Positions 116-14,700 of a stretch of 64,000 nt of DNA are shown here, piece after piece (within the stretch, counting starts at the first letter, position 1; each line of letters opens with the position of its first letter). The position numbers and the translations under genes are program-made. The notes beneath the pieces were generated by a model. It saw nothing but the letters and a program-made list of their open reading frames with translations, ran no database searches and was not told the DNA's origin. This DNA comes from Comamonadaceae bacterium (GTDB lineage: Bacteria > Pseudomonadota > Gammaproteobacteria > Burkholderiales > Burkholderiaceae_C), in the NCBI GenBank assembly GCA_043777675.1, contig JAYWHR010000065.1:9992-73991 (forward strand), in the 5' to 3' direction.

Positions 116-1537
116 CTACTGCAATACACCCCGCCTTTGCGCCACCACTTCTGAAGCACTCACAGCATGGGCTTGATTGCCCCAACCCGCGCGGATATAA
201 GTGGCTACAGCAGCAATATCTTCATCGGTGAGCACATGAACGAAAGGCGGCATGCCATAGGGGTGAGGGTTGCCTAGGGTAGCGGGCGCGTAGCCGCCGG
301 CCAAGATAATTCGCACAAGGTTGGCACTGCTAGCTAGGCTGACGGCGCGGTTGCCCGAAAGAGCAGGAATTTTTGTAACGGATGGCGCCATGCCTGGCTG
401 GGCAAGTGCGTCTAGCTCTTGCAGGCCTTGGCCATCTGAGCCATGGCAGGTGGCGCAATATTTGCCGAAAAGTGCAGCGCCTTGGCCAAGCAATTGCTGT
501 GAGATTTTTGCGGCTCCCATACGTGGCGCGGGGCGCTCAGGCAGGCTTTGCAGATAAGCGGCAGCGGCATTCAAATCCTCATCGCGCCAATACTGCGTGC
601 TCTTGGCCACCACTTCGGCCATGGGGCCGAGAGCTGAGGCATTGTGCGTCGCGCCATTTTTGAGAAAAGCAATCACTTCGCTTCGCGGCCAATGTTGTAC
701 GCCGGCTTCCTCTTTCGCATGCAGCGATGGGGCATACCAATCTTGCATCGGCATCAGGGCGCCAGAGAGCAGGCCATCGCTGCTGGCTGCGCCCAGCGCA
801 TTGCGCTGCGCATGGCAAGCGCTGCAATGGCCGAGGCCGCTCACAAGATAGCGGCCTCTTTCCACTTCATTTTTAAAGGGTTTTGAGCCAGTAGCCGGCA
901 CAGAATATGCGTGAGAAGCTATTAATTTAGGAGTGTTCTCGATATCTCCAGCGCTAAAAAAGAGTACGCGCCACACCGCCAAAGCCAGCTGCGTGTTAAA
1001 CGGAAAGCCCAGCTCATGCTCACGGCTGGCCTGCGCAACAGGCTGCACGCCGAGCTGGAAATAGGCATACAGCGCATCGCTGTCAGCGCGGCTGATTTGG
1101 GTGTAATTCGGATAAGGAAAAGCGGGGGTGAGCAAGCGGCCTTGCGCATTCACGCCGTGCTTCATGGCACGATAAAAAGCATCAGCGCTCCACGCGCCAA
1201 TGCCATGCACAGGATCAGGCGTGATGTTGCTGGCGAAGACCGCGCCAAAAGGCGTGTGAATTGCCTTCCCGCCGGCGAATGGCTCGCCGCCTCGCGCGCT
1301 GTGGCAAGCAGCGCAGTTGCCTACTCTTGCTAGATACTCGCCTTGTGCAAGAGCCACATTTTTTTCTTCACTTTTAATACTTTTTTGGGCACTAGCCGGC
1401 ATATCTATTGATCTAAATGCTACTAATTCAATAGCAATCAGGCTGCACAACGTCAGCAGTAAAGCGGTAAGCGCAGCGCCTGCCACGATCAGGCAGCGCT
1501 TAGGCCATGAGGCCGTTTGCCAAAATTGCCGCTTCAT
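116..1537 (-). CDS. Membrane-anchored triheme cytochrome c (gluconate/alcohol dehydrogenase cytochrome subunit-like)
   Basis: Three CxxCH motifs (CAACH, CSACH, CATCH), N-terminal hydrophobic helix, NITPD and APSL motifs. Start moved to the ATG at 1537, which overlaps the upstream stop (ATGA). Confidence 0.85.
   Translation of the reverse strand: MKRQFWQTASWPKRCLIVAGAALTALLLTLCSLIAIELVAFRSIDMPASAQKSIKSEEKNVALAQGEYLARVGNCAACHSARGGEPFAGGKAIHTPFGAVFASNITPDPVHGIGAWSADAFYRAMKHGVNAQGRLLTPAFPYPNYTQISRADSDALYAYFQLGVQPVAQASREHELGFPFNTQLALAVWRVLFFSAGDIENTPKLIASHAYSVPATGSKPFKNEVERGRYLVSGLGHCSACHAQRNALGAASSDGLLSGALMPMQDWYAPSLHAKEEAGVQHWPRSEVIAFLKNGATHNASALGPMAEVVAKSTQYWRDEDLNAAAAYLQSLPERPAPRMGAAKISQQLLGQGAALFGKYCATCHGSDGQGLQELDALAQPGMAPSVTKIPALSGNRAVSLASSANLVRIILAGGYAPATLGNPHPYGMPPFVHVLTDEDIAAVATYIRAGWGNQAHAVSASEVVAQRRGVLQ
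892..934 (+). repeat. 43-bp interspersed repeat, copy 1 (in frame inside cytochrome c gene)
   Basis: tagccggcacagaatatgcgtgagaagctattaatttaggagt; gap-free match to the other copies; encodes TPKLIASHAYSVPAT on the minus strand. Confidence 0.85.
1393..1435 (+). repeat. 43-bp interspersed repeat, copy 2 (in frame inside cytochrome c gene)
   Basis: tagccggcatatctattgatctaaatgctactaattcaatagc; both ends conserved, middle diverged; encodes AIELVAFRSIDMPAS on the minus strand. Confidence 0.75.
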
Positions 1538-2274
1538 TTCACGCCGCCGCATTCAAGAGGCAATGGCAGAGGCAGAGCCAATGGCATTGGCAAGGCCGCA
1601 AGATTGGGTGCTGCAGATATGACGAGTTTGGCTTGAGGCACAGACTGCGCCGCCAGCCAGGTCACCACGGCGCTCACGTCTTCAGGCGTCAGTGTGCGAG
1701 CGATGCGCGCCATGCAATCTGGCGCTTGCGCCTTGCGAATGCCAGTTTGCCAAGCGCCGAGCTGCCCGGCCATATAGTCGCGCGGCAACCCGAGCAAGCC
1801 GGGAATGCTGGGCTGGGCAGTTGCATCGCCTACCAGTGCCGCACCGTGGCAGCTGGCGCAAGCTGCAATCCCCTTGCTGGCATCGCCCCGCAAGGCCAAT
1901 TGCTGGCCGCGCTGCATCACAGCAGCTGTTGTGCCACTGGGCGGCACTTGTGGCTCCGGGTAAGGTAATTGCAATTGCGCGAAATACTGAGCCATCTCCA
2001 TCAAAGCCGCATCGCTTTGATGCTCCACCAAGCCCACCATCAAGCCGTAATGCCGACGGCCATCGCGGAAATTCACGAGTTGGTTGTAGAGATAAAGCGC
2101 GGGCTTGCCAGCAATACGCGGAAAATACACTTCATTGGCTGTGCGCCCCACCGTAGCCGTAGAGCCAGCGCCATGGCATGTGGTGCAGGCTTGCATCCTT
2201 TTGGCAGCGCTTTGCGCGAAGCTGGAGTTAAGTGAAAGCGCACATACGAGCGCGAAAAGAAAGAAAGAATTCAC
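1534..2274 (-). CDS. Diheme cytochrome c4/c553 family protein
   Basis: Signal peptide, CTTCH and CASCH, PRIAGK..YLYNQL and P.L.GLPRDY motifs typical of c4. Confidence 0.85.
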   Translation of the reverse strand: MNSFFLFALVCALSLNSSFAQSAAKRMQACTTCHGAGSTATVGRTANEVYFPRIAGKPALYLYNQLVNFRDGRRHYGLMVGLVEHQSDAALMEMAQYFAQLQLPYPEPQVPPSGTTAAVMQRGQQLALRGDASKGIAACASCHGAALVGDATAQPSIPGLLGLPRDYMAGQLGAWQTGIRKAQAPDCMARIARTLTPEDVSAVVTWLAAQSVPQAKLVISAAPNLAALPMPLALPLPLPLECGGVK

Positions 2275-2318
2275 AGCCTAATGATAGCGCTGCACAAGCA
2301 CCGAGGGCTCGGGCAAGG

Positions 2319-2867
2319 CTAATAACTGCGCCCTGCTTTGTAAGCGGCGTGCGCTCTGGGCGCTAGCGTCGTGGCTGCCGCAAGCCGAGCTCTGGCCTGG
2401 CCCACATGCGCATGGGTGATAGCGAGGCCCAGCGCATCGGCGGCATCTTTGCCGGGCAAGCCGGGAAGCTTCAGCAAACGCATCACCATCTCCTGCACCT
2501 GTGCCTTAGCCGCTTTACCATGCCCCGCCACAGCCTGCTTCATCTGCAAAGCCGTGTATTCAGCCACTGGCATATCCAGTGAGACCAAAGCCGTAACACA
2601 GGCGCCACGCGCTTGGCCAAGCAGCAGCGTGGCCTGCGGATTCACGTTCACAAACACAATCTCAACCGCCGTCTGCGCTGGCTGATACGTGGCGACCACT
2701 TCGCGCACACCGTCATACAACACTTTCAAACGCGCAGGCAAATTGCCACGATCCAGATGCGTGGTGGTGATCGTGCCACTGGCGATGTATTGCAAAACGC
2801 CGCCAGAATACTCCAGCACGCCAAAGCCCGTGGTTTGCAAGCCAGGATCAATGCCTAAGATGCGCAT
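2319..2867 (-). CDS. ruvC: Holliday junction resolvase RuvC
   Basis: [44 protein letters not shown]. Confidence 0.95.
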
Positions 2868-3853
2868 CACAAATCAAAATACCAACGCACAGAATGAAAG
2901 AAGACAGGCGCCGCGAAACACAGCGCGTCCACGCGATCCAGCAGCCCTGTTGCACCCGTGACCGATGGCGCGCCGCTCCAGTTCGTCACACCCCGGTCGC
3001 GCTTTAATGCCTTCATCACCAAATGCCCCAAGCTGCCCGCCGTGCAAGCAATCAAAGCCATGCCTAGCGCCTGGCCTGGCTTAAAGGGCGTGATGCCTGC
3101 CAGCAAGCCCCCCACCAAACCGCCCGCTGCCACGCCCACTGCAAAGCTAGTCCAGGTAAAGCTCATGCTGATCAGTGGTGCACGCGGCTTTCCCTTTAGC
3201 CAGCGCTGCATCACATGCTGCACCACCATACAAATTTGCACGGTAAACACCAAGAAAAATACGAGGAAAGCATTCTTCGCCTCATCCCAGCGCGGAAAAT
3301 CAAGAAGCAACAAAGCCGGCACATGGCTCATGCCATACACACACACCATGATGCCCCATTGCAACTTAGCGTTGCGCTCCAAAAAGCGCTGCGGATCATT
3401 GGCCAGAGCGCTCACCACGGGAATCGCCAAAAACACATAGACCGGAATAAACACCGTAAAGAGCTCAAAATGTTCAGTAATCACCAGCCAAAACTGAATC
3501 GGCAGCACGATGAAAAAAGCCAAAATCAAGCTGCGATGATCGCCACGCCGCGTGGGCGAGAGCGTGATAAATTCGCGCAGCGCGAAAAATGCCACGATCG
3601 CAAAGAGCACAGTAGCCACCGTCTCACCCGCCACCCAACCGATCCAAAAAACCAAGGCCACCAGCCAAGAGGTATTGAGCAAACCGACCAAGCGCTTGAT
3701 CTCCAGCTCCCAAGCTTTGCCCAGCGGCGTTTCGCGCTCACGGAAAGCCAGCGCAAAGAGCACCATGGAGGCCACAAAAAGCAGGCCAAATACGATAATG
3801 AACAGCAAACCAACTTGCTGGGAGGCGGTAAGCGTACGCAAATATTGATTCAT
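2867..3853 (-). CDS. Phosphatidate cytidylyltransferase family membrane protein
   Basis: Multi-TM; ALREF, KRDRGV and [17 protein letters not shown] motifs; adjacent to acyltransferase. Start placed at MNQYL. Confidence 0.8.
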
Positions 3854-3857
3854 TGCG

Positions 3858-4508
3858 TTACACCTCTCTGAGCGCAATCACCGCATCGCGTGCTCTTTCG
3901 GCAAATGCTGCATGATCTTCCACCCAAGCGTCTTCGCCCTGCCCGCTGCGCTGAATTTGGATGGGTGCACCAAAAGTTACGCTGCATAACACGGGCACCG
4001 GCACCACCTCACCCTTGGGCAAAAGGCGCTGAATATTGTTGATCCATGCTGGCACCAGCACTACAAGGGGGAATTTCAACGCTAAGTTGTAAAGCCCGCT
4101 TTTAAACCGTTGCGGCAGCTCCTCGTAGCCTCGCGTACCTTCAGGAAACAAAATGATCGAATCACCATTCGCCAGCGCGTCGATCAAAGGTGCCAGCGGA
4201 TCGCTTAAATTACCAGCCGCATCAACGTTGCGCTCCCGCTCCACGTACACCGCATTGAACACTTCTCGCGTGATCCAGTGCTTAAAAGTCGTCTTCGTCC
4301 AGTAATCTCTTGCAGCAATGGGCCGCGTGATCCCGCGCAGCTCGGCGGGCAATGCTGCCCAAATCATCACTAAATCTGCATGGCTTTGGTGATTGGCAAA
4401 ATAAATGCGCTGCTCGGCCTTAGGCGGGCAGCCATGCCAACGCGCTTGCGCTCCGGTGAGCACACGCACAAGGCTCAGCAAAAAGAAACCCATTAATTTA
4501 GCCAACAT
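3858..4508 (-). CDS. Lysophospholipid (1-acyl-G3P) acyltransferase family protein
   Basis: NHQSHAD (HxxxxD), FPEGTRG, FKSGLY. Confidence 0.87.
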   Translation of the reverse strand: MLAKLMGFFLLSLVRVLTGAQARWHGCPPKAEQRIYFANHQSHADLVMIWAALPAELRGITRPIAARDYWTKTTFKHWITREVFNAVYVERERNVDAAGNLSDPLAPLIDALANGDSIILFPEGTRGYEELPQRFKSGLYNLALKFPLVVLVPAWINNIQRLLPKGEVVPVPVLCSVTFGAPIQIQRSGQGEDAWVEDHAAFAERARDAVIALREV

Positions 4509-4747
4509 GGCTTGATGTTACCCGTGCAGAAGCACAAGTTCTAAGAAATAAGACTGCATTTGTCTTTTTGCTTAGCGGCAACAGCCCACGAATCCGCGAA
4601 GCCGTGAGCGACAGCATTCATAATTTTTGTAGGCACACTGCCGTGCTAAATGTCACACTCCTCATCTGTTCTAGGGAGAGGCTCGTGTCAATGCACCAAT
4701 GATGTTCGGTATCATCAGTCCCTAGGGTTGCCACTACTTATCTACAA

Positions 4748-5809
4748 ATGTCTAAAATTCTCGTTACTGGCGGTGCCGGCTTTATTGGCTCAAATTTCGT
4801 GATTGATTGGCTTACCAATAAAGAGCACGCTGCGGTCAACGTTGATGCCCTGACTTACGCCGGAAACTTAGAGAATCTGAGCAGTCTTGAGAAAAATGCC
4901 GCGCATACCTTCGTTAAAGCCGATATCGCAGATTCAACGCGTATCGCGGAGCTTCTGGCTCAGCATCAGCCCAGTGCCGTGGTGCATTTTGCGGCTGAAA
5001 GCCATGTAGATCGCTCCATTCATGGGCCAGAGGCCTTCATTCAAACCAATATTGTTGGCACATTTCGCTTGCTTGAAGCCGTTCGCACCTATTGGGCAGG
5101 CTTGGCCGCTGATCAAAAAGCCGCATTCCGCTATCTTCACGTCTCGACTGACGAAGTCTATGGCTCACTCAGCGCTGGCGCGCCAGCGTTTACCGAAACG
5201 CACACCTACGAGCCCAACAGCCCCTACAGCGCCAGCAAAGCGGCCAGCGACCATCTCGTGCGCGCCTACCACCACACCTATGGCTTGCCCACGCTCACCA
5301 CCAATTGCTCCAACAATTACGGCCCCTACCATTTCCCCGAAAAGCTCATCCCCCTGATGATCGTCAACGCTTTAGCCGGCAAAAATTTGCCTGTGTATGG
5401 CGATGGCATGCAAATCCGCGATTGGCTTTATGTCAAAGACCATTGCAGCGCCATCCGCCGCGTGCTCGAAGCGGGCAAAGTTGGCGAGGTGTACAACATC
5501 GGCGGCTGGAATGAAAAGACCAATATCGAGATCGTCAAAACCATCTGCGCCCTGCTCGATGAATTGCGCCCCCGTGCAGACGGAAAAAGCTACACCAGCC
5601 AAATCACCTATGTGCAAGATCGCCCCGGCCACGATCGCCGCTACGCCATCGATGCGAGCAAAATCCACAATGAGCTCGGCTGGAAACCTCAAGAGACTTT
5701 CGACAGCGGCATCCGCAAAACCGTGCAGTGGTATCTGGATCATCCGCAATGGGTTGCCAATGTGCAGAGCGGCAGCTACCGCGATTGGGTAGAAAAGCAA
5801 TATGCTTAA
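4748..5809 (+). CDS. rfbB: dTDP-glucose 4,6-dehydratase
   Basis: [53 protein letters not shown]. Confidence 0.97.
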
Positions 5810-5835
5810 AATAGTGCTAGCCATAGGAGCACATC

Positions 5836-6390
5836 ATGGGTGAAGCACTTGCCAAACAAACTGCAGTCGAATACCTTGCGTGGGAGCCCAAGCAAGAAGA
5901 ACGGCATATTTATGTGCGCGGCGAGATTTTTGCTATATCAGGCGGTACGTTTGAGCACAATGAAATAGCGCTGAATTTAGCGGTTGCGCTTAAATCTCAT
6001 CTCAAAGGCGCGCCCTGTAAGGTTGGTATCAACGATATGCGAGTGGCCGTTGAAAAAGCTGATTGTTATTTTTACCCTGATGTGTTTGTGACCTGCGCCA
6101 CGCGCGACACACAAGATCCAAAAATCACCGAAGTCTATGAAGCGAAGCTTATCGCTGAAGTCCTCTCTGAGAGCACGGCATCGTATGACAGGGGTGCAAA
6201 GTTTGCAGACTATCGCCAGCTCAGCAGCTTAGAAGAATATGTCCTGATTGACCCTGATGCACGCACCGTTGAAGTCTTCCGAAAAAATGCTTCTCATATT
6301 TGGGAGTTGCATCCCAGCAATGCTGCCTCTCCGTCCGTTTCGCTCAATAGCGTGGGCTGGCAGGGCAATTTGGCCGATTTCTTCGGCTAA
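5836..6390 (+). CDS. Uma2 family (DUF820) PD-(D/E)xK endonuclease-like protein
   Basis: GGTFEHNEIA, YFYPDVFVTC, EVLSESTASYDRGAKF..YRQLSSLEEYVLID. Confidence 0.85.
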   Translation: MGEALAKQTAVEYLAWEPKQEERHIYVRGEIFAISGGTFEHNEIALNLAVALKSHLKGAPCKVGINDMRVAVEKADCYFYPDVFVTCATRDTQDPKITEVYEAKLIAEVLSESTASYDRGAKFADYRQLSSLEEYVLIDPDARTVEVFRKNASHIWELHPSNAASPSVSLNSVGWQGNLADFFG

Positions 6391-6416
6391 CAGTAAGCAA
6401 CTACAGGGACCTCAAT

Positions 6417-6500
6417 ATGCAATGGAGTGAAGTCATCGCCAACCCGTTTTTGCAAACCCGAGTGACATGCATGCAATATTTTGCCCGGCTCAAATATTAA
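6417..6500 (+). pseudogene. Possible 5' remnant of a second Uma2-type gene
   Basis: 27-codon ORF MQWSEVIANPFLQ-TRVTC... The first 13 residues resemble my recollection of a Uma2 subfamily N-terminus (MQWxEVxxxPxLQDLPYKIEL); unverified. Confidence 0.35.
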
Positions 6501-6508
6501 TTCGCATC

Positions 6509-6808
6509 ATGCGCCTTCAACCCAAGCAAATTGAGATCATCAAACTGCACACCCTAGATATCTTCGGCCCGCAGGCTGTTGTGCGCTTGTTTGGTTCGAG
6601 GCTTGATGATGCTGCGCTTGGTGGCGATGTCGATTTACACATTGATAGCCCCGTTCCACTAGGCTCCCCAGCGTTAGCCATCAGCCGGATGGGTGCAGCC
6701 TGTTCGCGCGCGATGTGGGGGCGTAAAGTTGATGTGTTGCTCAGTGCCCCAGGCCTGACTGAGCTGCCCATTCATCGCGTCGCGAAAACACAAGGAATTG
6801 TCTTGTGA
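6509..6808 (+). CDS. Minimal nucleotidyltransferase (MNT), putative antitoxin
   Basis: FGSRLDDAALGGDVDL (GS-x9-DxD), about 99 aa; overlaps the downstream HEPN gene by 4 nt. Confidence 0.85.
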   Translation: MRLQPKQIEIIKLHTLDIFGPQAVVRLFGSRLDDAALGGDVDLHIDSPVPLGSPALAISRMGAACSRAMWGRKVDVLLSAPGLTELPIHRVAKTQGIVL

Positions 6809-7299
6809 AACGTATCGATCATGAGCGCTTGGCATTTTTGTGCACCGTCGTGCGCAAAGAAATTACTCTTCTAATGCAAAGCATTCAAGAGTTGCAGCCC
6901 GCTTACGCCAGCAAAAGTGATGCAGAAATCACTGTGCTTCTTTCTACAAATCAGCGGATCAACGAAGTGATTGAGCTTTTCGCGGGGCGCTTTAGCCGTT
7001 TGCAAGACACTGTGGGCGACAAGTTGCTTGAACAACTCATGCGCGCACTCAGCGAGCCACCCCTTGCGCAACTTGCCAAGCTAGATCGCGCTGAGGCACT
7101 GGGCTGGCTGTCTAGCGCTAATTTATGGCTTGAAACGCGCCAATTGCGCAATCTTCTTCTGCACGAATACATCGAAGCGCCAGAGTTGCTGGTAGCGTCC
7201 GTCCGCACTGCGCTTGATCGCTGCAGTTTGCTTCTGGATACGGCAGAGCGCCTTATTGCTGAAGTCAACAAAATAACACCTCAAAATTCTTCATCATGA
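6805..7299 (+). CDS. HEPN-domain protein, putative RNase toxin
   Basis: RFSRLQD and RNLLLHEY (R-x4-H); paired with upstream MNT; stop overlaps rfbA start (ATGA). Confidence 0.8.
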
Positions 7300-8171
7300 C
7301 CACCCAACGCAAAGGCATCATCCTCGCCGGCGGCTCCGGCACGCGCCTGCACCCTGCCACGCTCGCCATCAGCAAGCAATTGCTTCCCGTGTACGACAAG
7401 CCCATGGTGTATTACCCACTCAGCACCCTCATGCTCGCTGGCATACGCGATATTCTCGTCATCAGCACACCGCACGACACGCCGCTGTATCAAAAGCTTC
7501 TGGGCGACGGCAGCCAATGGGGCATTAGCTTGCAATACGCCATTCAGCCAAGCCCTGATGGCCTAGCTCAAGCCTTCATCATCGGCGATAAATTTCTCGG
7601 CAATTCTCCCAGCGCTCTCGTGCTAGGAGACAACATCTTCTACGGCCATGATTTTCAGCAGCTTCTTGGTGCCGCAGATCAGCAAAGTCAAGGTGCCACA
7701 GTTTTCGCTTATCACGTCAAAGACCCCGAGCGCTATGGCGTGGTTGCCTTTGATGCGGCAGGCAAAGCCAACAGCATCGAAGAGAAACCAAAAGCGCCAA
7801 AAAGCAACTATGCTGTAACAGGCCTGTATTTTTATGACAATCAAGTCTCGGCAATCGCTAAAGAAGTCAAGCCCAGCGCTCGCGGCGAGCTAGAAATCAC
7901 ATCCGTCAACGATGCCTATCTGCAAAGGGATCAACTCAACGTGCAGATCATGCAGCGCGGCTACGCATGGCTTGACACAGGCACACACGAAAGCTTACTA
8001 GAGGCCAGCCAATTCATTGCTACCATTGAGCATCGGCAAGGCTTGAAAGTCTGCTGCCCAGAGGAGATTGCCTACAGATCCAGCTGGATTAACGCAGCGC
8101 AGCTCGAAGTCTTGGCCGCACCCTTGGCCAAGAATGCATATGGCCAGTATTTGCGTGGCCTGCTTAACTGA
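7296..8171 (+). CDS. rfbA: Glucose-1-phosphate thymidylyltransferase
   Basis: [48 protein letters not shown]. Confidence 0.97.
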
Positions 8172-8205
8172 TCCCAGTCAACGCTGCTAAATTAGGAGTC
8201 AAGCT

Positions 8206-8475
8206 GTGCCAGCCATCAGTATGTTTTACGGTATCGTCATTTATATGTACTTTTTTGATAATGATCGACACCATATGCCCCACATCCATGCCAAGTATCA
8301 AGATTTCAAAGCAATCTTTTCCATAGACGATGGAGCTTTGCTCGGTGGAAATCTCCCGCCTGCAAAAAATCGCTTGGTACAAGCATGGATAGAGATTCGC
8401 AGAGAAGAGCTGGTAGCCGATTGGAGTCTGGCGGTAGAAGGGCAAGCTCCGCTTTCGATTGATCCGCTGCGCTGA
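8206..8475 (+). CDS. DUF4160 family protein (putative toxin of a TA-like pair)
   Basis: MPxISxFYGIVIYMY..D..H..PHIH, LVQAWIE.RREEL..DW; GTG start with AGGAG RBS. Confidence 0.85.
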   Translation: MPAISMFYGIVIYMYFFDNDRHHMPHIHAKYQDFKAIFSIDDGALLGGNLPPAKNRLVQAWIEIRREELVADWSLAVEGQAPLSIDPLR

Positions 8476-8490
8476 AGCATAAGTTGCAAT

Positions 8491-8733
8491 ATGAACCACC
8501 TAGAAGAAGTCACAGCAGTATGTGCACTCAGCGGGCACCAACTGAAGTTAAAGTTTAAGTCCGGTGAAGACCGCTTGTTTGATTGCACTCCTTACCTCAA
8601 CAAAGGCTTATTCAAAGCGCTTCAAAACGAAGCTGTGTTTAATCAAGTCCGACTATGCTCTGGATCAATCGCATGGCCAGGCGGGCTCGATTTATCTCCA
8701 GAAACCTTGTTTGATCGTTCAATCCCATTTTAA
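8491..8733 (+). CDS. DUF2442 family protein (usual partner of DUF4160)
   Basis: L.L.F.SGE.R.FD..PYL, F..V, IAWPGGLDLSPETLF. Confidence 0.8.
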   Translation: MNHLEEVTAVCALSGHQLKLKFKSGEDRLFDCTPYLNKGLFKALQNEAVFNQVRLCSGSIAWPGGLDLSPETLFDRSIPF

Positions 8734-8737
8734 AGCC

Positions 8738-9022
8738 ATGCGCATCACCCCCCAAGAACACATCGCCATCGTCCAAGCTGTCATAGCTCAGGATGCTGCT
8801 GCGCAGATTTTTCTGTATGGCTCGCGGGCAGATGATCAAGCCTTGGGCGGCGACATTGATCTACTGCTTCTGTCCCAAAAAATCAAATTCGACAACAAAC
8901 TAGACATCTTGGTAAGCCTGCGCCACAGCCTAGGGGAGCGCAAAATTGATATTGCTGTGTATCCCGATGCGAGCAGGCCATTTGCGCAAGTTGCGCTTGA
9001 AACTGGTATTCGGCTCAACTAA
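8738..9022 (+). CDS. Second minimal nucleotidyltransferase (MNT), putative antitoxin
   Basis: YGSRADDQALGGDIDL and ERKIDI. Start reassigned to ATG at 8738, 4 nt after the DUF2442 stop. Confidence 0.85.
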   Translation: MRITPQEHIAIVQAVIAQDAAAQIFLYGSRADDQALGGDIDLLLLSQKIKFDNKLDILVSLRHSLGERKIDIAVYPDASRPFAQVALETGIRLN

Positions 9023-9024
9023 TC

Positions 9025-9465
9025 ATGCAGGCCAAGCTCACCCTCTTAAAAGCTGAGTTGGCTAGCCTCGAGCTTGCAGCGCAACATCTGAGGTTCTCTA
9101 TAGCGCGCTGTGATGGCTTTGCCAGTTGGCAGCCACCCACGCCAGAGCAGCTAGAGCGTTTAGAGTTTCTCTCTGCCAGATTTGCCAGGTTGGCTGACTT
9201 ACTGATACAGCGCATTTTTCGCTTGATTGATGACATTGAGATCGTCGGCTCCAGCACTGTGCTTGACAGAATTTATCGTGCTGAAAAACGTGGCTGGTGC
9301 GTAGCCTCTGATCTGATCAGAATCAGAGAGCTTCGCAACACCATCGCCCATGAATACGCCAGCGAAGCTATGGCCGAAATGTATACAAGTATTGCAGCTT
9401 TTTCTGAAATCCTATTGCAAGCCGCTCAGCAAACAATCAACGGCGCACAAGCGCACTTAAAATGA
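9025..9465 (+). CDS. Second HEPN-domain protein, putative RNase toxin
   Basis: RFARLAD and RNTIAHEY (R-x4-H); 2 nt after MNT, 7 nt before rfbC. Confidence 0.8.
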   Translation: MQAKLTLLKAELASLELAAQHLRFSIARCDGFASWQPPTPEQLERLEFLSARFARLADLLIQRIFRLIDDIEIVGSSTVLDRIYRAEKRGWCVASDLIRIRELRNTIAHEYASEAMAEMYTSIAAFSEILLQAAQQTINGAQAHLK

Positions 9466-9472
9466 TAAAACC

Positions 9473-10018
9473 ATGATTGTTACCCCAACATCCCTACCCG
9501 AAGTGCTCATCCTCGAACCCAAAGTGTTCGGCGATGAGCGCGGCTTTTTCTACGAGAGCTTTAACGCAAAGGCATTCGAGCAAGCCACAGGTGTCAAGAA
9601 AACTTTTGTGCAAGACAACCATTCCAAATCAGCCAAAGGCGTATTACGCGGTCTGCATTATCAGATTGAACAACCTCAAGGCAAGCTAGTGAGAGTGACG
9701 CAGGGTGAAGTGTTTGATGTGGCGGTAGACATCCGCAAAAGCTCGCCAAATTTCGGCAAATGGGTGGGCGTGAATTTAAGCGCGGAAAATAAACGCCAGC
9801 TTTGGGTGCCAGAGGGGTTTGCGCATGGCTTCTATACTATTACCGAAAGCGCAGAGTTTCTCTATAAAACGACCAACTACTATGCGCCACAAGCAGAAAG
9901 GTGTATTGTTTGGAATGATGCGCAGATCGGGATTGATTGGCCTGTGATTGCTCAGCCCGCCGTATCTGCAAAAGATGCTTTCGGCCTAGTATTCACTGAA
10001 GCTGAAAAATTCGATTGA
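9473..10018 (+). CDS. rfbC: dTDP-4-dehydrorhamnose 3,5-epimerase
   Basis: FGDERGFFYESF, FVQDNHS.S.KGVLRGLHYQ, PEGFAHGF. Confidence 0.97.
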   Translation: MIVTPTSLPEVLILEPKVFGDERGFFYESFNAKAFEQATGVKKTFVQDNHSKSAKGVLRGLHYQIEQPQGKLVRVTQGEVFDVAVDIRKSSPNFGKWVGVNLSAENKRQLWVPEGFAHGFYTITESAEFLYKTTNYYAPQAERCIVWNDAQIGIDWPVIAQPAVSAKDAFGLVFTEAEKFD

Positions 10019-10022
10019 CGAA

Positions 10023-11018
10023 TCATTCCGTGTAAAACACCCCTTCGCCAGCATGATTTTCTAAAAACTCGTGTTTTACAGTTTGCTCAATGGCTCTTTC
10101 AAGCGGAACGGGAGGCACAAAGCCTGTGCGTTCTAGCGCTGTGTTGTAAACAGAATTAGCACAAAACTTTTTGACGCGAATGGCGCTGATAGGAAATTGT
10201 TTGCCTGTGAGATTCGCCACCCCATCAAAACACTTGCCAATCATGTGGCCGACAGCGAAGGGCAGTCTAAAACGAATCGTCTCCGAGCGACCAAGCATGC
10301 GGTTCACGTTGGCAACCAAGCTATTCATCGTGAAATCTGGCTTGTCAATATAGTTAAAAATATGCAAACCTGGGCTAAAGCTCAAACTGTGCTCGATGAA
10401 CGCTGTCACATTCTCCACATAAGCCATCGATTTTCTGTTCTCTCCATTACCCACCATCACAAATTTGCCCGAGGCGATTTGTTTAAGGAGGTTATATACG
10501 TTTCCACGATTTTGTTCGCCAAAAACCACTGTGGGGCGAATGATCACCAGTGAACGTTCTGAAGGAGCTTCGGCCTGCCAAGCTTTAAAAATGAGCTCAG
10601 CTTCGCTTTTTGTGCGCCCATATTCGTTGAAGGGAGCAATCTTTCCTGATTCATCAGTTCCCAGCGGCGCAAATCCGTAAACCGCAACCGTGCTTGTGAA
10701 AACAATAGTCTTCACATTCTTTTCACGCGCAACAGTACAGATATTTCGTGCACCTTCAATGTTGACGTCGCTATAAAGGCTCAAAGGCCGGACATCATCT
10801 CGGTGCTCTGCAGCTAAGTTGATAATGACAGACGCTTCGGAAATCGTCGCTCTTAGCTGATCAGGGCGGGTTACATCGCCGAGCGCCACCAGTTCTGGAT
10901 GAGCTTTACTGGATGCCTTGTCGATGATTTTGACATTCAGCAAGTTGGTGAAGCTAAGTCGACGTACTAAACGAGTCCCAATGAAGCCGCTGCCACCAAT
11001 CACATTTACTGTTTGCAT
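10023..11018 (-). CDS. gnu: Gnu-like GlcNAc-PP-undecaprenol 4-epimerase (extended SDR)
   Basis: GGSGFIG, LAAEHRDDV, RPTVVFGEQNRGNVYNLLKQIASGKF, RVKKFCA, all matching my recollection of E. coli O157 Gnu. Confidence 0.78.
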   Translation of the reverse strand: MQTVNVIGGSGFIGTRLVRRLSFTNLLNVKIIDKASSKAHPELVALGDVTRPDQLRATISEASVIINLAAEHRDDVRPLSLYSDVNIEGARNICTVAREKNVKTIVFTSTVAVYGFAPLGTDESGKIAPFNEYGRTKSEAELIFKAWQAEAPSERSLVIIRPTVVFGEQNRGNVYNLLKQIASGKFVMVGNGENRKSMAYVENVTAFIEHSLSFSPGLHIFNYIDKPDFTMNSLVANVNRMLGRSETIRFRLPFAVGHMIGKCFDGVANLTGKQFPISAIRVKKFCANSVYNTALERTGFVPPVPLERAIEQTVKHEFLENHAGEGVFYTE

Positions 11019-11164
11019 TTGAATATCCCTTGAGTGCATGGAGTTCGCGTAAATAAGTTGCTTGTGTGATCATCGAAAAAAGGAAAGTTATGCCGCCAAC
11101 ACAGTAGCTCGCTTTTCTTCACGTCATATTTTATTTGTGGCAAGACAAAATCATGCTAGCACTT

Positions 11165-12427
11165 TTAATTTTTCTGAATTTTTTGGCTCGGATGCATGGC
11201 TGATGACCGCATTTTGTGAAAGAAAATACTGAATCTAGCCAGTTGCCCGGCTTCGGTATAGGATGCCTCGACGAGCCTTCGTGCGTTATCTCCGCGTGCT
11301 TCAATCGCACAAAGGTCATCGATTGACCATTGGTTGATCAACTCGATTAGTTGGTTGGCCTCGCTCCAGTCGAATGCCCAGCCGATATCATGCGACTTGA
11401 CGAGTCGATATATCTCACTGTCTTTCGGACCCAGAAACAGCATGGGCTTACCAGCGGCCAAGATGTTGTAGGTCTTCGACGGGACGCCAAGACCATACAT
11501 GTCAGGTCCTAGGATCACGAGAGCAATGTCACACGCACCCAGTACCCGGCTTTGATGGGCTCGGGGATAAGCCCCCTTCAGGATGAATCTCTGTCGACCT
11601 TGCGTTGCCTCGCGCAGCGCTGTTGACAGAGCGCCGGAGCCACGGAACACGTACTGGATAACATCGTTTTGCGCGGCCGAGACAAGCGCTACGAATTCGA
11701 GCAGACCTTGGGCGCGACCGATGTTGCCCGCGTATTGAATGACAATCCGATCCGACAGGCCCATGCCCGGGATCATCGATTGGTCTCGGGGAATCCGTTC
11801 CACTAACGGGTGGTCTGCCCAGTTTTCGATGAGTGTGATCCTGTCGGCACTGGCGGGAACTTTTTTGGCGATCACTTCGGACATGTCCCGGCCAATGGTG
11901 ATCACGGCGTCTGCCGAACCATATGCCCAGTCGAACACTCGGCGGATCAGCGGATATAGAAAGTGCTGGCGCCGAATGACACCAGCGGCCACCGCGTTCT
12001 CGGGAAATACGTCGTGGACGAGGAATACCAGCTGGAATCGCCGAACCTGCCGGATCATCGCCAAAGCGACCAGCAGAGGTGCTGGGTTGGTAACTGCAAA
12101 TACGGTGTCGGTGCGCCGGGATTTCAGGAGCGTTTTCCAGCCTAGGCCAATAGTCAGCATCAGCAAGCGAGCGAGCCGTGCCAGCAGTTTGTTTTTACTC
12201 AGCTTAGGTGCCCATGTCCGTACGATGCTGGCTTCATTAATCGGTGGTTTCTCCGCATTGTGGTGTGCTCGCCCTTCATAGGAGGCTGGGCCGGTCAGAA
12301 CCAACAGCTCAAACTCACGCGTAAGCTCGCTAGCAATCTTTGTGAGAATGTGGGCCGTCGCCGACTCCTCCGGATAGAAGAGTTCTGAGACCAAGACAAT
12401 ACGTTGTCTGTTACACATATTAATCAT
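11165..12427 (-). CDS. GT4 glycosyltransferase, WbuB-like (candidate L-FucNAc transferase)
   Basis: SELFYPE, HDVFPENA, YAGNIGRAQGL, PSK.YNILAAGKP; follows fnlABC. Confidence 0.78.
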   Translation of the reverse strand: MINMCNRQRIVLVSELFYPEESATAHILTKIASELTREFELLVLTGPASYEGRAHHNAEKPPINEASIVRTWAPKLSKNKLLARLARLLMLTIGLGWKTLLKSRRTDTVFAVTNPAPLLVALAMIRQVRRFQLVFLVHDVFPENAVAAGVIRRQHFLYPLIRRVFDWAYGSADAVITIGRDMSEVIAKKVPASADRITLIENWADHPLVERIPRDQSMIPGMGLSDRIVIQYAGNIGRAQGLLEFVALVSAAQNDVIQYVFRGSGALSTALREATQGRQRFILKGAYPRAHQSRVLGACDIALVILGPDMYGLGVPSKTYNILAAGKPMLFLGPKDSEIYRLVKSHDIGWAFDWSEANQLIELINQWSIDDLCAIEARGDNARRLVEASYTEAGQLARFSIFFHKMRSSAMHPSQKIQKN

Positions 12428-12433
12428 CTAGGA

Positions 12434-13570
12434 TCAATACGCTTTCCACACCACACGCCTGACATAGTCTGTGTAACTGTGGATGATGCGCAGAATCTTG
12501 TCCGACACATTGGGAACGCTGTAGTCCGCCACCAAGCGCAGAGATCGTTCGACACCGCGTGACTGAGTGGCCAAGATGGCTAGGCCTTGGCGCACCCTGT
12601 CCACCTCCAAGCCGGTCATCATTACAGCCGCTTCTTCCATGCCCTCTGGCCGCTCGTGCGCCTCGCGCAGGTTTAGCGCAGGGAAGTTTAGGATCGACGA
12701 CTCTTCGTTGATCGTTCCACTGTCCGACAGCACAGCTTTGGCATGCATCTGCAGATTTACGTAATCATGAAAGCCAAGAGGCTTCATAAGCCGTATTTGC
12801 GGATGAAATTTGACGCCTGTTGCATCGATACGCTTTTGGGTACGGGGATGCGTTGACACCACAATAGGCAGTTCATGGTCTTCAGCAACAGCGTTTAACA
12901 CACCAACCAACTTATTAAAGCTCCGATCAGACTCAATGTTTTCCTCACGATGCGCGCTAACTACAAAGTACTGCTCGCCAGTCAAGCCAAGTCGAGCTAG
13001 CGCATCAGATTCCTTAATTTGCGGCATATAGTGATGCAACACTTCAAACATAGGGCTTCCGGTATTGATCACTTGATCTGGCGGCAAGCCTTCGCGCAAT
13101 AAATAGTCTTTCGCTATGCTGCTGTAAGTTAAATTTATATCTGCCGTGTGATCAACAATTCGGCGATTTGTTTCTTCCGGTACACGCTGATCAAAGCAAC
13201 GGTTGCCAGCCTCCATGTGAAAGATCGGGATCCTGCGCCGCTTGGCTGGGATGACAGATAAACAGCTGTTGGTGTCCCCAAGCACCAGCATGGCTTCTGG
13301 CTGAATCTCAGCGAGCACTTGGTCTACACCGATGATTAGGTTGCCAATCGTGTGTGCTGCGCTCATAGTATTGATAGCGCTGCCTAGGAAATGGTCAGGC
13401 TTGCGAACTCCCAAATCGTCAAAAAACACCTGGTTGAGCTCATAGTCGTAGTTTTGTCCTGTATGCACCAGCACATGCTCACAGTGCTTGTCGAGTGCCG
13501 CAAGGACACGCGAGAGCCGGATGATCTCCGGTCGTGTGCCCACCACTGTCATTATCTTGAGCTTTTTCAT
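12434..13570 (-). CDS. fnlC: UDP-2-acetamido-2,6-dideoxy-L-talose 2-epimerase (FnlC/WbjD)
   Basis: GTRPEIIRLS, HTGQNYDYEL, HMEAGNRCFD, DSGTINEES, HERPEG; third gene of an fnlABC block. Confidence 0.87.
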   Translation of the reverse strand: MKKLKIMTVVGTRPEIIRLSRVLAALDKHCEHVLVHTGQNYDYELNQVFFDDLGVRKPDHFLGSAINTMSAAHTIGNLIIGVDQVLAEIQPEAMLVLGDTNSCLSVIPAKRRRIPIFHMEAGNRCFDQRVPEETNRRIVDHTADINLTYSSIAKDYLLREGLPPDQVINTGSPMFEVLHHYMPQIKESDALARLGLTGEQYFVVSAHREENIESDRSFNKLVGVLNAVAEDHELPIVVSTHPRTQKRIDATGVKFHPQIRLMKPLGFHDYVNLQMHAKAVLSDSGTINEESSILNFPALNLREAHERPEGMEEAAVMMTGLEVDRVRQGLAILATQSRGVERSLRLVADYSVPNVSDKILRIIHSYTDYVRRVVWKAY

Positions 13571-14700
13571 ACTTTCACTTTCATGGCTACAGTGTCCGGG
13601 CGCTGTTGGTCAAAAACCTCGTTGGCCCAGAGCATCACGATCATTTCGTCGTCTCCTATATTGGTGATGTTGTGCGTCCAGCCAGGGACAGTCTCCACAA
13701 TCTGTGCTTCGCCACCGCGTGTCACCAGTTCGTGGGTTTCGCCCGAGAGGATGTGGCGGAACCCGAAATGAGCTGTGCCTTTGAGCACTAAGAATTTTTC
13801 GGTCTTGCTGTGGTGGTAATGCTCGCCGCGGGTCACGCCGGGGTGTGCAGTGAAGTAAGAAAACTGCCCCGCGTCGGCCGTCTTCAGCATCTCGACAAAT
13901 TCGCCGCGCTGGTCGGCATGTCGAGGCACGGTGTAGGCGAACGCGGTTGGCGGCAGATAGCTGATGTATGTGCTGTAGAGCGCCCTCAAAAAGCCGGTGC
14001 CCACGCGATCAGTCAGCAGCGTGTTGCGGCTCGCTGCAAAACCGCGCAAGGTGGCTGCCACCTCAGCCACGGTGGTCGTGTACGCCGGAGCCACCGTGTC
14101 AAATGCGTCGGATGCCTGTGCCTCGCTGTTTGTCGCGGATATGCACGCAACAAAGGCCTGCACCACATCGTCCACGTAAACTAGATTTAACGGAGGTGCT
14201 GCTTCGTTCACCGAAATTGGTAGACCATAGGCCACGTTGTGGCAGAAGGTTGCAATGGCTGAATTGTAGTTGGGACGAGCCCACTTGCCAAACACATTGG
14301 GCAGCCGGAACACGTGCACCGGTGCACCAATGGCCGCGCAGTAAGCGCGAACCGTAAACTCGGCAGCGGCTTTGCTACGACCATAGGGGTTGTCTTGCGC
14401 AGCTTGGGTGGATGAAGCCAGCACCACGCGCGCCTTGCGCCCAGCAGCCGACAAGGCATCACAGATCGTCTGTGTCAACTCAGCATTCCCTGTTGTGAAC
14501 TCGGCTGGGTCTTTGGGTCGGTTGACACCAGCTAGGTGAAATACGCAGTCTGCCTCTTCCATCGCATGCTGTACATCGTTGGCCGACGAAGCACGGGTGA
14601 TTTCGGTCACTTGGGTGTGCCCGAGCTCGCGAAGGCGTACACGAAGATTCTTGCCAATGAAACCGTCGGCGCCGGTGATCACGATGCGCATGGGGTTCAA
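13567..14700 (-). CDS. fnlB: FnlB/WbjC reductase with C-terminal cupin domain
   Basis: TGADGFIGKNL, HLAGVNRP, NVFGKWARPNYNS, HYHHSKTEKF. Confidence 0.87.
   Translation of the reverse strand: MNPMRIVITGADGFIGKNLRVRLRELGHTQVTEITRASSANDVQHAMEEADCVFHLAGVNRPKDPAEFTTGNAELTQTICDALSAAGRKARVVLASSTQAAQDNPYGRSKAAAEFTVRAYCAAIGAPVHVFRLPNVFGKWARPNYNSAIATFCHNVAYGLPISVNEAAPPLNLVYVDDVVQAFVACISATNSEAQASDAFDTVAPAYTTTVAEVAATLRGFAASRNTLLTDRVGTGFLRALYSTYISYLPPTAFAYTVPRHADQRGEFVEMLKTADAGQFSYFTAHPGVTRGEHYHHSKTEKFLVLKGTAHFGFRHILSGETHELVTRGGEAQIVETVPGWTHNITNIGDDEMIVMLWANEVFDQQRPDTVAMKVKV

Follow-up and report, generated by a model that had tools for sequence, protein, structure and literature searches.

Toxin-antitoxin-like gene cassettes in both junctions of a rmlB-rmlA-rmlC operon mark a recurrent and changeable docking place

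Why does a three-gene rml operon carry seven toxin-antitoxin (TA)- and nuclease-like genes between its own genes, and by what route could they have arrived there? We addressed this question in a 64,000-nt stretch of contig JAYWHR010000065.1 from a Comamonadaceae bacterium, hereafter the window. The operon begins with rmlB (dTDP-glucose 4,6-dehydratase, 4748..5809, TIGR01181 1.6e-154), continues with rmlA (glucose-1-phosphate thymidylyltransferase, 7296..8171, TIGR01207 1.3e-154) and ends with rmlC (dTDP-4-dehydrorhamnose 3,5-epimerase, 9473..10018, TIGR01221 2.5e-83), in the order rmlB-[Uma2, MNT1-HEPN1]-rmlA-[DhiT-DhiA-like, MNT2-HEPN2]-rmlC, with every gene on the + strand. Re-checking of open reading frames and families showed that the gene order, single strand and seven inserted genes of the original prediction were correct to the base. 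The successive spacers from rmlB to rmlC, recomputed as 26, 118, -4, -4, 34, 15, 4, 2 and 7 nt, were identical to those first given (-4 to 34 nt, one of 118 nt), and the coordinates agreed that the HEPN1 stop overlaps the rmlA (rfbA) start and that HEPN2 ends 7 nt before rmlC (rfbC). Downstream, rmlC faces a long cluster of polysaccharide genes in convergent orientation. The operon lacks rmlD, for which a 35% homologue is found on another contig. All seven inserted genes are single-copy in the 3.66-Mb genome, which holds only one Uma2 match (the gene in this operon), two DUF4160 and five Polbeta-MNT matches, so their clustering here does not reflect a background across the genome. What the region holds is a functional rmlB-rmlA-rmlC operon whose two intercistronic junctions house a "TA islet".

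The first slot, between rmlB and rmlA, contains an MNT-HEPN pair preceded by a Uma2 nuclease-like gene and by what is left of another Uma2 gene. The Uma2 gene (5836..6390, PF05685 4e-34), of the PD-(D/E)xK nuclease-like family, is a solitary cassette and matches the PADLOC candidate PDC-S03 (2.6e-25). Sequence comparison identified a 5' stub of about 13 codons, MQWSEVIANPFLQ (6418..6458), as derived from a deleted second Uma2-family gene, "Uma2b", which stands intact at this position (139 aa, PF05685 6e-17) in G010, L051, L254, L256 and L259. The operon has its sole 118-nt gap because this remnant is still there. MNT1 (6509..6808), a minimal nucleotidyltransferase and presumed HEPN1 antitoxin, carries an invariant GSRxDDx3GGDxD signature with a further invariant Asp (D75), and its stop overlaps the start of HEPN1 (6805..7299). 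Alignment and fold mark HEPN1 as a predicted RNase-type toxin of the HEPN fold that carries R-x4-H-x-Y: R115, N116, H120, E121 and Y122 are invariant across its family alignment, and its AlphaFold model has a pLDDT of 91.8.

In the second slot, between rmlA and rmlC, a DhiT-DhiA-like pair is followed by another MNT-HEPN pair. The DUF4160 gene (8206..8475, PF13711 2.7e-24) encodes a predicted DhiT-like toxin and the DUF2442 gene (8491..8733, PF10387 1.8e-13) a predicted DhiA-like antitoxin, which together would act as type II DhiTA does. The pair shares its domains and its unusual toxin-first order with DhiTA of Dickeya dadantii 3937 (PMC8198452), and its NCBIfam toxin_DhiT match (4.2e-28) covers 82/84 positions, yet with 97.8 bits it narrowly misses the curated cut-off of 100. 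The pair differs in having a 15-nt spacer, where DhiTA has a 3-nt overlap, and in its position, with rmlA on one side and an MNT-HEPN pair on the other. MNT2 (8738..9022), again a minimal nucleotidyltransferase and the presumed HEPN2 antitoxin, matches Polbeta (1.1e-7) and MntA_antitoxin (1e-7). HEPN2 (9025..9465), a second predicted HEPN toxin (motif RNTIAHEY), is related to HEPN1 by BLASTP (1e-8) and has a weak HepT-like match (E 0.023).

Both MNT-HEPN pairs are most likely type VII HepT/MntA-like systems, in which the HEPN RNase (R-x4-H) would be kept inactive by its partner MNT, which would AMPylate the adjacent Tyr. Like the systems of Shewanella oneidensis (SO_3165/SO_3166) and Aphanizomenon flos-aquae, they are MNT-first, with an MNT stop that meets or overlaps the start of HEPN, an MNT with GSx(9-11)DxD plus a third Asp, and a HEPN with R-x4-H followed by the Tyr at which HepT is AMPylated. 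The best PDB folds for the HEPN1 model are HEPN toxins of HEPN-MNT systems, solved HepT/HEPN toxins (probability 1.0, with a weak E of ~1e-2), and MNT1 lies directly 5' of HEPN1 in 80/80 related loci. The pairs differ from the known systems, which stand alone with a mapped promoter, in being nested in a housekeeping operon and predicted from sequence. MNT1, HEPN1 and HEPN2 had no significant Pfam match and score under every curated family threshold (Pfam/NCBIfam HepT-like, DUF86, MntA); the HEPN1 family, with about 109 clusters, has no Pfam domain in precomputed annotation, and the HEPN2 family exceeds 586 clusters. The best PDB sequence matches, HI0073 (the single PDB profile match of MNT1, E 0.1) and HI0074/TTHA0048, together with the repeated association of such pairs with nucleotide-sugar genes, would suit two-subunit nucleotidyltransferases of nucleotide-sugar or polysaccharide metabolism rather than TA systems, as first proposed for HI0073/HI0074. 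We regard this as very improbable, since the RNase/AMPylation motif is invariant, the folds match proven HEPN toxins, classical TA families occupy the same slots and most rml operons lack the pairs.

We compared the rmlB-rmlA and rmlA-rmlC junctions across congeners and metagenomic relatives, and found cassette turnover. Relatives clearly have no fixed gene set: at least eight occupancy states exist in one genus-level group, ten other species of which have a compact, empty rmlB-rmlA-rmlC. The slots contain MNT1-HEPN1 in L251; Uma2, Uma2b and MNT1-HEPN1 in L256; Uma2b, MNT1 and a truncated HEPN1 in L254; Uma2b in G010; and Uma2, the stub, MNT1-HEPN1 and an orphan MNT2 in G005. MNT2 copies are orphaned or internally deleted in G005 and G010, and L259 has MNT2-HEPN2 in the rmlB-rmlA slot. 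Cassettes of all variants are oriented on the operon's strand.

The same junctions are occupied repeatedly beyond this genus. We surveyed 88 rml operons of the family (238 junctions, drawn from the 150 best RmlA matches) and counted a junction as filled when it exceeded 300 nt. Filled junctions numbered 21/238, in 15/88 operons, and 15 of the 21 held TA genes (PIN/VapBC, CcdAB, MNT with NTase_sub_bind or HepT, AbiEii), compared with 3/520 filled junctions, none by TA, in the nuo operon. Fisher's test gave a P of ~1e-8, a value that overstates independence, as the genomes are related, the rml sample came from the best RmlA matches and nuo is an unusually constrained control. True rml genes lay within 7 kb in 13/80 HEPN1-family loci, against about 0.5% expected by position, and these loci include Limnohabitans, Rhodocyclaceae, Sulfuricella and gammaproteobacteria. 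Among five sampled HEPN2-family loci, three were beside rml and one more beside other polysaccharide-synthesis genes. These results show that rml junctions are a recurrent, changeable docking place for selfish or defensive modules. The literature search found no description of TA modules lodged between conserved rml genes.

We next considered how the modules arrive. In line with the original prediction, the operon region was free of transposase and integrase genes and of flanking repeats. It also lacked tRNA genes and Rfam matches; the cassette borders had neither inverted nor direct repeats, and no plasmid or phage copies of the cassettes were found. TA modules are known from chromosomal (super)integrons, where they are thought to stabilise the array, and DUF4160/DUF2442 and MNT/HEPN genes occur in chromosomal integron arrays. 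The small, tightly packed, same-strand genes of the operon resemble such arrays, and could in principle be cassettes of the integron type, taken up into the operon as an attC array that lacks an integrase. This reading is extremely improbable: the 2-34-nt spacers already contradict it, being too short for attC, no attC site was found, the flanks are biosynthetic, the borders lack repeats, and neither the stretch nor its annotated flanking genes (window 116-15752) contain an integrase gene.

Recombination scars were present. The 13-nt sequence GGAGCRCATCATG is repeated on both sides of Uma2 in L256/L257. It stands ahead of the gene that comes after rmlB, whichever that is, and occurs nowhere else among 262 loci. 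A ParDE+ATPase insert in Limnohabitans T6-5 is flanked by a 92-nt duplicated rmlC 5' end, and the Uma2b stub also counts as a recombination scar. Between the window and L251, MNT1-HEPN1 is 93.6% identical in nucleotides (dS 0.13-0.26; HEPN1 alone 92.5%, its flanks ~81%), whereas rmlB and rmlA are 81% (dS 1.0-1.6) and lapB 76.5% identical (dS 1.7), and rml and core genes together span 76-82%. The tract of high identity opens with the start of MNT1 and ends some 75 nt inside rmlA. Being so much more similar than the rml and core genes, the module was exchanged recently between species, alone and independently of its flanks. These signatures favour homologous recombination within rml genes, together with joins that are illegitimate or based on microhomology, over a site-specific recombinase. 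The insertion mechanism, which the original prediction had left unexplained, is thus partly answered by the scars and the exchange tract, and the route remains an inferred one; the initial event, in which a cassette enters de novo, was not seen among the loci compared. The original interpretation is partly borne out: variable occupancy, the TA excess over nuo and the one module exchanged alone support its claim that the gaps act as cassette landing sites.

The expression of the inserted genes was considered from their arrangement. With 2-34-nt spacers or 4-nt overlaps, a common strand and no terminator signal between them, rmlA and rmlC should be expressible only through the cassettes, which are probably co-transcribed with the operon. 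HEPN1 stop and rmlA start share ATGA, an overlap present in all four variants examined, and rmlA may be translationally coupled to HEPN1; where relatives have an empty junction, the rmlB stop overlaps the rmlA start. A different view is that the modules are self-contained TA operons of the usual kind, with autoregulated promoters, sitting at a tolerant spot outside the rml transcript and perhaps supplying promoters to rmlA and rmlC. MntA-HepT (PMC4621449) and DhiTA (PMC8198452) do have autoregulated promoters of their own near the first start codon (within 30 nt in Shewanella MntA-HepT, PMC4621449), weak promoter-like matches lie at 8234-8262 and 8997-9026, and each module could have a promoter inside the preceding gene. 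We consider this view improbable, as the spacing leaves no intergenic room, every cassette in every variant lies on the same strand as the operon, and the consensus scan gave no enrichment either way over shuffled expectation (promoter-like 4 vs 5.7, terminator-like 11 vs 7.4).

The explanation that we favour, and hold to be moderately probable, is that the TA islets ride on conserved rml genes as homology arms and are read through with the operon. In a surface-polysaccharide locus that is otherwise hypervariable, the rml genes are the part that is conserved and widely shared, and they would serve as portable homology arms, by which homologous recombination could carry modules lodged between two of them into other genomes. 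Microhomology or illegitimate events would lose or shuffle modules, no dedicated recombinase would be involved, and the putative toxin activity would retain modules by addiction, perhaps also defence. This pattern fits the published model of TA acquisition and erosion in which recombination at the core genes on either side spreads the modules (Belot et al., Mol Biol Evol 2026, PMC13617665), whose TA spots likewise lack mobile-element genes, are patchy among congeners and contain truncated toxins, orphan antitoxins and DNA remnants. The rml spots differ in being the junctions between the genes of one particular operon, with the modules always in its orientation, in recurring across a whole bacterial family and beyond, and in the long-term purifying selection on their toxins. 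As in O-antigen locus exchange and replacement flexible genomic islands (PMC4033161), the rml locus edges a hypervariable polysaccharide cluster, with crossover scars within rml genes and with rmlC alleles that range within the genus from 51 to 90% identity to that of the window, against 85-91% for rmlA, although that literature concerns the swapping of glycosyltransferase sets.

Finally, we asked whether the placement could be adaptive for the host, the modules being tied to how the operon for O-antigen precursors is expressed, either as an abortive-infection sensor firing once a phage shuts off host (rml) transcription or as a locus guard killing cells that delete or replace the resident polysaccharide locus. 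We judge this rather unlikely. Unrelated VapBC, CcdAB, ParDE and AbiEii in the same junctions argue for a permissive site and not a specific circuit, antitoxins often remain where the toxin is truncated or missing (G005, G010, L254, L259), most congeners have no cassette, and TA systems do not conserve neighbourhoods (Belot et al. 2026, PMC13617665). In its favour are the PADLOC match of Uma2, the constant HEPN1-rmlA overlap and the enrichment, across several orders, of two separate MNT-HEPN subfamilies at loci for rml or polysaccharide synthesis. It is also favoured by selection: in the G000 vs G005 comparison cassette dS equals that of the flanking rml genes, and cassette dN/dS is 0.09-0.12 (Uma2 0.09 vs G005, HEPN1 0.12), indicating that the toxin genes have been under purifying selection as long as the flanking rml genes. 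Such selection over a long time (dS ~1.4) exceeds what is predicted for a purely selfish, eroding element, and leaves room for a host-level function of the toxins.

Both junctions of the rml operon in the window are occupied by accessory genes. Along the plus strand, rmlB (4748-5809, profile match) is followed by a Uma2-family gene (5836-6390, Pfam), the minimal nucleotidyltransferase gene MNT1 (6509-6808, alignment signature), HEPN1 (6805-7299, motif and fold model), rmlA (7296-8171, profile match), a DUF4160/DhiT-like gene (8206-8475, PF13711 and NCBIfam), a DUF2442 gene (8491-8733, PF10387), MNT2 (8738-9022, Polbeta/MntA match), HEPN2 (9025-9465, BLASTP to HEPN1) and rmlC (9473-10018, profile match). 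The spacers from rmlB to rmlC are, in order, 26, 118, -4, -4, 34, 15, 4, 2 and 7 nt, and the HEPN1 stop overlaps the rmlA start. Gene order, strand, spacers and this overlap agree exactly with the original prediction, and the absence of transposase, integrase and repeats that it reported was borne out: the region has none of these, nor a tRNA or any meaningful repeat, and the gaps gave no Rfam match to a structured RNA at E <= 0.1. All seven cassette genes are single-copy in the 3.66-Mb genome, which holds one Uma2, two DUF4160 and five Polbeta-type MNT genes in total. Therefore, the islet is not simply the reflection of a genome rich in toxin-antitoxin (TA) genes.

Upstream of rmlB, on the opposite strand, lie core genes (cytochromes c, ruvC, a CTP-transferase and an acyltransferase), and the downstream side is taken up by a dense polysaccharide cluster, convergent with the operon, whose gaps are too small for cassettes and whose contents include epimerase, GT4 glycosyltransferase, UDP-GlcNAc 2-epimerase and FnlB/FnlA-like genes. 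The rml operon therefore forms the conserved border of a surface-polysaccharide locus that is variable; O-antigen loci are known replacement islands (PMC4033161). Three of the four rmlBDAC enzymes, RmlB, RmlA and RmlC, are encoded in the operon. No rmlD was found inside it in the window (4748-10018) or in the loci of the genus (L031-L042), family-level relatives have the order rmlB-rmlD-rmlA-rmlC, and the sole RmlD homologue of the window's genome (G000), on contig C39, is only 35% identical. The final sugar product of the genus may therefore differ, or may depend on a distant reductase.

We then assessed the identity of the two MNT-HEPN pairs. HEPN1 and HEPN2 carry the R-x4-6-H RNase motif as RNLLLHEY and RNTIAHEY, respectively, and are related to each other (BLASTP 1e-8). 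In an alignment of 30 HEPN1 homologues, R115, N116, H120, E121 and Y122 were invariant, giving R-x4-H-x-Y, and the position equivalent to Y122 is present in HEPN2. The tyrosine next to R-x4-H is the residue that is AMPylated in HepT. Published work on HepT (PMC7641770) likewise points to this tyrosine. PDB searches by sequence alone gave marginal matches only, so a fold search was needed. The AlphaFold model of HEPN1 (pLDDT 91.8) is all-helical with the HEPN four-helix fold, and its top Foldseek matches (8xeh, 8yuf, 7ae6, 1jog and 5yep) had probability 1.0 with weak E-values of ~1e-2 and TM scores of 0.43-0.65 by query length and 0.50-0.78 by target length; almost all of the best folds were HEPN toxins of HEPN-MNT systems. 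The upstream partner in such systems carries a nucleotidyltransferase signature, G-S-x(9-11)-D-x-D plus a third catalytic aspartate. In the MNT1 family G29, S30, D40, D42 and D75 were invariant (G-S-R-x-D-D-x3-G-G-D-x-D plus the third Asp), the sole match of an MNT1 profile search of the PDB was HI0073, the MNT partner of HI0074, and MNT2 matched Polbeta and MntA at 1e-7.

HEPN1, HEPN2 and MNT1 had no significant Pfam or NCBIfam match, HEPN1 and MNT1 did not match PF01934 (HepT-like) or NF047752 (MntA), and none of the 109 homologous clusters of HEPN1 contained a Pfam domain. HEPN2 scored 14.9 bits (E 0.023) against the HepT-like model, with a cut-off of 23.5, and MNT2 scored 31.8 bits against the MntA model, with a cut-off of 60. 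The window pairs thus resemble type VII HepT/MntA in MNT-first adjacency, R-x4-H-x-Y, MNT catalytic aspartates and HEPN fold but fall below the curated thresholds, and from their sequences they are best filed as divergent relatives of that system. By analogy with it, the HEPN protein would be a toxic RNase that AMPylation of the tyrosine beside R-x4-H holds in check. Two MNT-HEPN subfamilies that escape the Pfam and NCBIfam models in current use come to light here.

The DUF4160 (PF13711, 2.7e-24) and DUF2442 (PF10387, 1.8e-13) genes have the composition of DhiTA and share its toxin-first gene order (PMC8198452), with a score of 97.8 bits against the NCBIfam DhiT equivalog model, marginally under its cut-off of 100; by analogy, the pair would act like DhiTA. 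Uma2 is a solitary PD-(D/E)xK-like gene whose only match among defence models is a candidate family.

The occupancy of the junctions was compared among relatives. In ten other species of the genus the operon is a compact rmlB-rmlA-rmlC, with the rmlB stop overlapping the rmlA start and the rmlA stop often overlapping the rmlC start, and all nine order-level loci, a small sample, were compact. Non-compact states came from the remaining congeners and from metagenomic and NCBI contigs retrieved with the cassette proteins. The window reads rmlB-[Uma2, stub, MNT1-HEPN1]-rmlA-[DhiT-DhiA, MNT2-HEPN2]-rmlC; the congener G005 reads rmlB-[Uma2, stub, MNT1-HEPN1, orphan MNT2]-rmlA-rmlC; and the congener G010 reads rmlB-[Uma2b]-rmlA-[divergent DUF4160, DUF2442, internally deleted MNT2]-rmlC, where Uma2b is a second Uma2-family gene. 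Among the contigs, L251 has rmlB-[MNT1-HEPN1]-rmlA, L254 has rmlB-[Uma2b, MNT1, HEPN1 truncated to 92 aa]-rmlA-[MNT, 161-aa gene]-rmlC, L256 and L257 have rmlB-[Uma2, Uma2b, MNT1-HEPN1]-rmlA, and L259 has [Uma2, Uma2b, MNT1, HEPN1 remnant]-rmlB-[MNT2-HEPN2]-rmlA. The original prediction had named a fixed gene set in relatives as evidence against itself, and the contents of both the rmlB-rmlA and rmlA-rmlC junctions proved to vary. In L251 (5730-6000), rmlC directly follows rmlA and has an apparent stop after ~28 codons, either a pseudogene or a metagenome assembly error.

The 118-nt gap of the window holds the first ~13 codons of Uma2b (MQWSEVIANPFLQ), a stub with 38 nt identical to the intact Uma2b of L256. 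Erosion of chromosomal TA modules is described as leaving orphan antitoxins, truncated toxins and stubs (PMC13617665), and those of the islet variants are of this type. The islet-bearing species do not form one close clade, as nuoD identity to G000 was 84-87% for bearing and empty congeners alike. G000 also contains a second, partial nuoD with only 77% identity on a tiny contig (C82, 1-430), probably a piece of some other organism's DNA; the reported contamination of the assembly is 2.85%.

A tmRNA gene lies directly upstream of rmlB in G005 (L038, 8115-8500; tag ANDERFALAA) and in L251 (~2480-2865). In L051, a contig whose TA islet is the same and lacks rml genes, the tmRNA gene (5273-5657) directly adjoins the islet on its upstream side, and in L259 the same lapA-lapB flank lies upstream of the islet. 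Islet and rml operon may be tied to the ssrA integration hotspot in part of the genus. An island targeted to a tRNA or tmRNA was rejected for the window itself, which has neither gene within 16 kb; the tmRNA gene of G000 is on another contig (C55, 21129-21514).

To measure enrichment, we took ~10 kb around rmlA from 80 further family genomes in addition to 20 earlier ones, measured the distances between successive rml genes and counted a junction as filled at >300 nt. Among 88 family-level operons, 21 of 238 junctions were filled, in 15 operons, and 13 genus operons, window included, had 5 of 26 filled, in 3 operons. The control was nuo, a strongly constrained operon (40 family genomes, 14 genes each), where 3 of 520 junctions in 2 operons were filled; the rml sample was drawn from the best RmlA matches. 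Classification of the inserted ORFs of the family sample by Pfam scans and inspection showed TA-type inserts in 15 junctions of 10 operons, a count that includes a few remnants: VapBC/PIN, CcdAB, MNT with NTase_sub_bind or HepT-like partners, and an AbiEii-like gene. The other 6 junctions held an epimerase, an AAA ATPase, an acyltransferase, two Wzz-like genes and lipoproteins. None of the three filled nuo junctions contained TA genes, and lipoprotein-like genes were found instead. These inserts, in nuoD-nuoE and nuoI-nuoJ of L230 (genome G071) and nuoF-nuoG of L211 (G085), are on the operon strand and encode 180-aa and 131-aa proteins, a 280-aa secreted-looking protein and a 211-aa lipoprotein-like protein, none TA-like. 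Fisher tests of rml against nuo gave an odds ratio of 16.7 (P ~1e-8) for any insert and P ~2e-8 for TA inserts. These values are qualified by the relatedness of the genomes, which are hence not independent, by the choice of the rml sample and by the strong constraint on the control operon.

The association was also seen from the side of the toxins. In 80 HEPN1-family loci examined of 424 found, one genome per species, MNT1 was directly upstream of HEPN1 in every case, and true rml genes lay within 7 kb in 13, against ~0.5% expected from position alone. Several Limnohabitans and Burkholderiaceae genomes have this MNT-HEPN pair in the rmlA-rmlC junction and one Rhodocyclaceae MAG has it in the rmlD-rmlA junction, and in Sulfuricella and gammaproteobacterial MAGs it adjoins rml genes. 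Three of five sampled HEPN2-family loci were near rml genes, directly beside them in L258 and L259 and 2.5 kb downstream of rmlC in L260, and a fourth adjoins other polysaccharide-synthesis genes. L260 (3587-5480, 3' of rmlD-rmlA-rmlC-manC) also carries, inside its polysaccharide cluster, a UPF0175/DUF3368 pair and a three-gene unit of MarR-type HTH, MNT and HEPN2-like genes. A search of 72,556 plasmids and 50,697 phage records gave no HEPN1 relative.

Substitution rates were compared to assess the age of the cassettes. Between G000 and G005, dS was 1.36-1.50 for Uma2, MNT1 and HEPN1 and 1.47-1.51 for the flanking rmlB and rmlA, and dN/dS was 0.09-0.12 for the cassettes and 0.05 for the rml genes. 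Uma2, MNT1 and HEPN1 are old, co-inherited with rml and under purifying selection, toxins included. Between the window and L251, the MNT1-HEPN1 module was 93.6% identical at the nucleotide level (dS 0.13-0.26), compared with ~81% for rmlB and rmlA (dS 1.0-1.6) and 76.5% for the core gene lapB (dS 1.7); the high-identity tract runs from the MNT1 start codon and fades ~75 nt into rmlA. This near-identity between diverged flanks shows that MNT1-HEPN1 was exchanged recently between two species, without its surroundings. Variable occupancy, TA enrichment and module exchange together support the description of the gaps as landing sites, and that part of the original prediction only.

No signature of site-specific recombination was found at the islet. 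An integron cassette array was rejected, as the spacers of 2-34 nt are too short for attC and the borders lack inverted repeats, and neither the stretch nor the set of annotated flanking genes (116-15752) includes an integrase gene. Three scars point to general recombination. The first is the end of the window/L251 tract in the conserved 5' part of rmlA. The second is a 13-nt Shine-Dalgarno-plus-start repeat, GGAGCRCATCATG, on both sides of Uma2 in L256/L257, which also precedes whichever gene comes after rmlB in G000 and L254 and is absent from the rest of the 262 loci compared; recombination between its two copies would yield exactly the Uma2-less arrangement. The third is in Limnohabitans sp. 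T6-5 (L062, 7919-8071 and 10210-10761), where a 92-nt duplicate of the rmlC 5' end, 93% identical, is followed by a ParD/ParE pair and an AAA_14/DUF4143 ATPase gene and then the full rmlC, as would be expected if DNA from a foreign locus had been imported by an illegitimate or single-crossover join. The T6-5 operon additionally contains two MNT-HEPN pairs and one orphan MNT. The rml genes, as the most conserved and most widely shared genes of a hypervariable locus, probably serve as portable homology arms, which would account as well for the trapping of particular MNT-HEPN subfamilies in this context.

All cassettes are on the operon strand with minimal spacers, and promoter-like and terminator-like sites did not exceed those of shuffled sequences in a scan that is itself uninformative, so rmlA and rmlC would be expressed through the cassettes, which would be transcribed by read-through with the operon. 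The ATGA overlap of HEPN1 and rmlA is retained in all four variants examined and replaces the rmlB/rmlA overlap of empty operons; it suggests that rmlA may be translationally coupled to HEPN1. We consider it probable that the TA modules at rml junctions are selfish or hitchhiking. Adaptive coupling of the modules to polysaccharide expression is unlikely. Equally doubtful, or slightly more so, is that the rml junctions are a selected, lineage-spanning niche in which TA modules are functionally coupled to the expression of surface-polysaccharide precursors, either as a sensor of transcription shut-off that would trigger abortive infection or as an allele guard that would impose a cost when the resident O-antigen type is lost or replaced.

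The cassettes belong to known kinds of TA system as divergent members, and their organisation is a variation on a known TA-hotspot theme. A general account exists of TA islets that lack mobile-element genes, of how they erode and of how recombination at flanking core genes spreads them (PMC13617665). The literature searches turned up no account of TA modules lodged between rml operon genes or in O-antigen operons, of their family-wide recurrence in rml junctions, or of lone module exchange between such sites. It has long been asked what purpose chromosomal TA modules serve and how they move when mobile-element genes are lacking. The rml locus allows both to be studied in a compact natural setting: a single conserved operon whose two or three defined slots take many states of occupancy in close relatives, with enrichment that can be measured against a control operon, purifying selection on the toxins, and one interspecies module transfer caught with its flanks left behind. 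Several ideas become directly testable there: that TA modules spread by using conserved genes as homology arms, that a toxin is expressed by read-through and coupled in translation to a housekeeping gene, and that TA modules guard a phage-receptor locus. If either the sensor or the guard were true, chromosomal TA modules would gain a specific physiological function connected with the main phage receptor.
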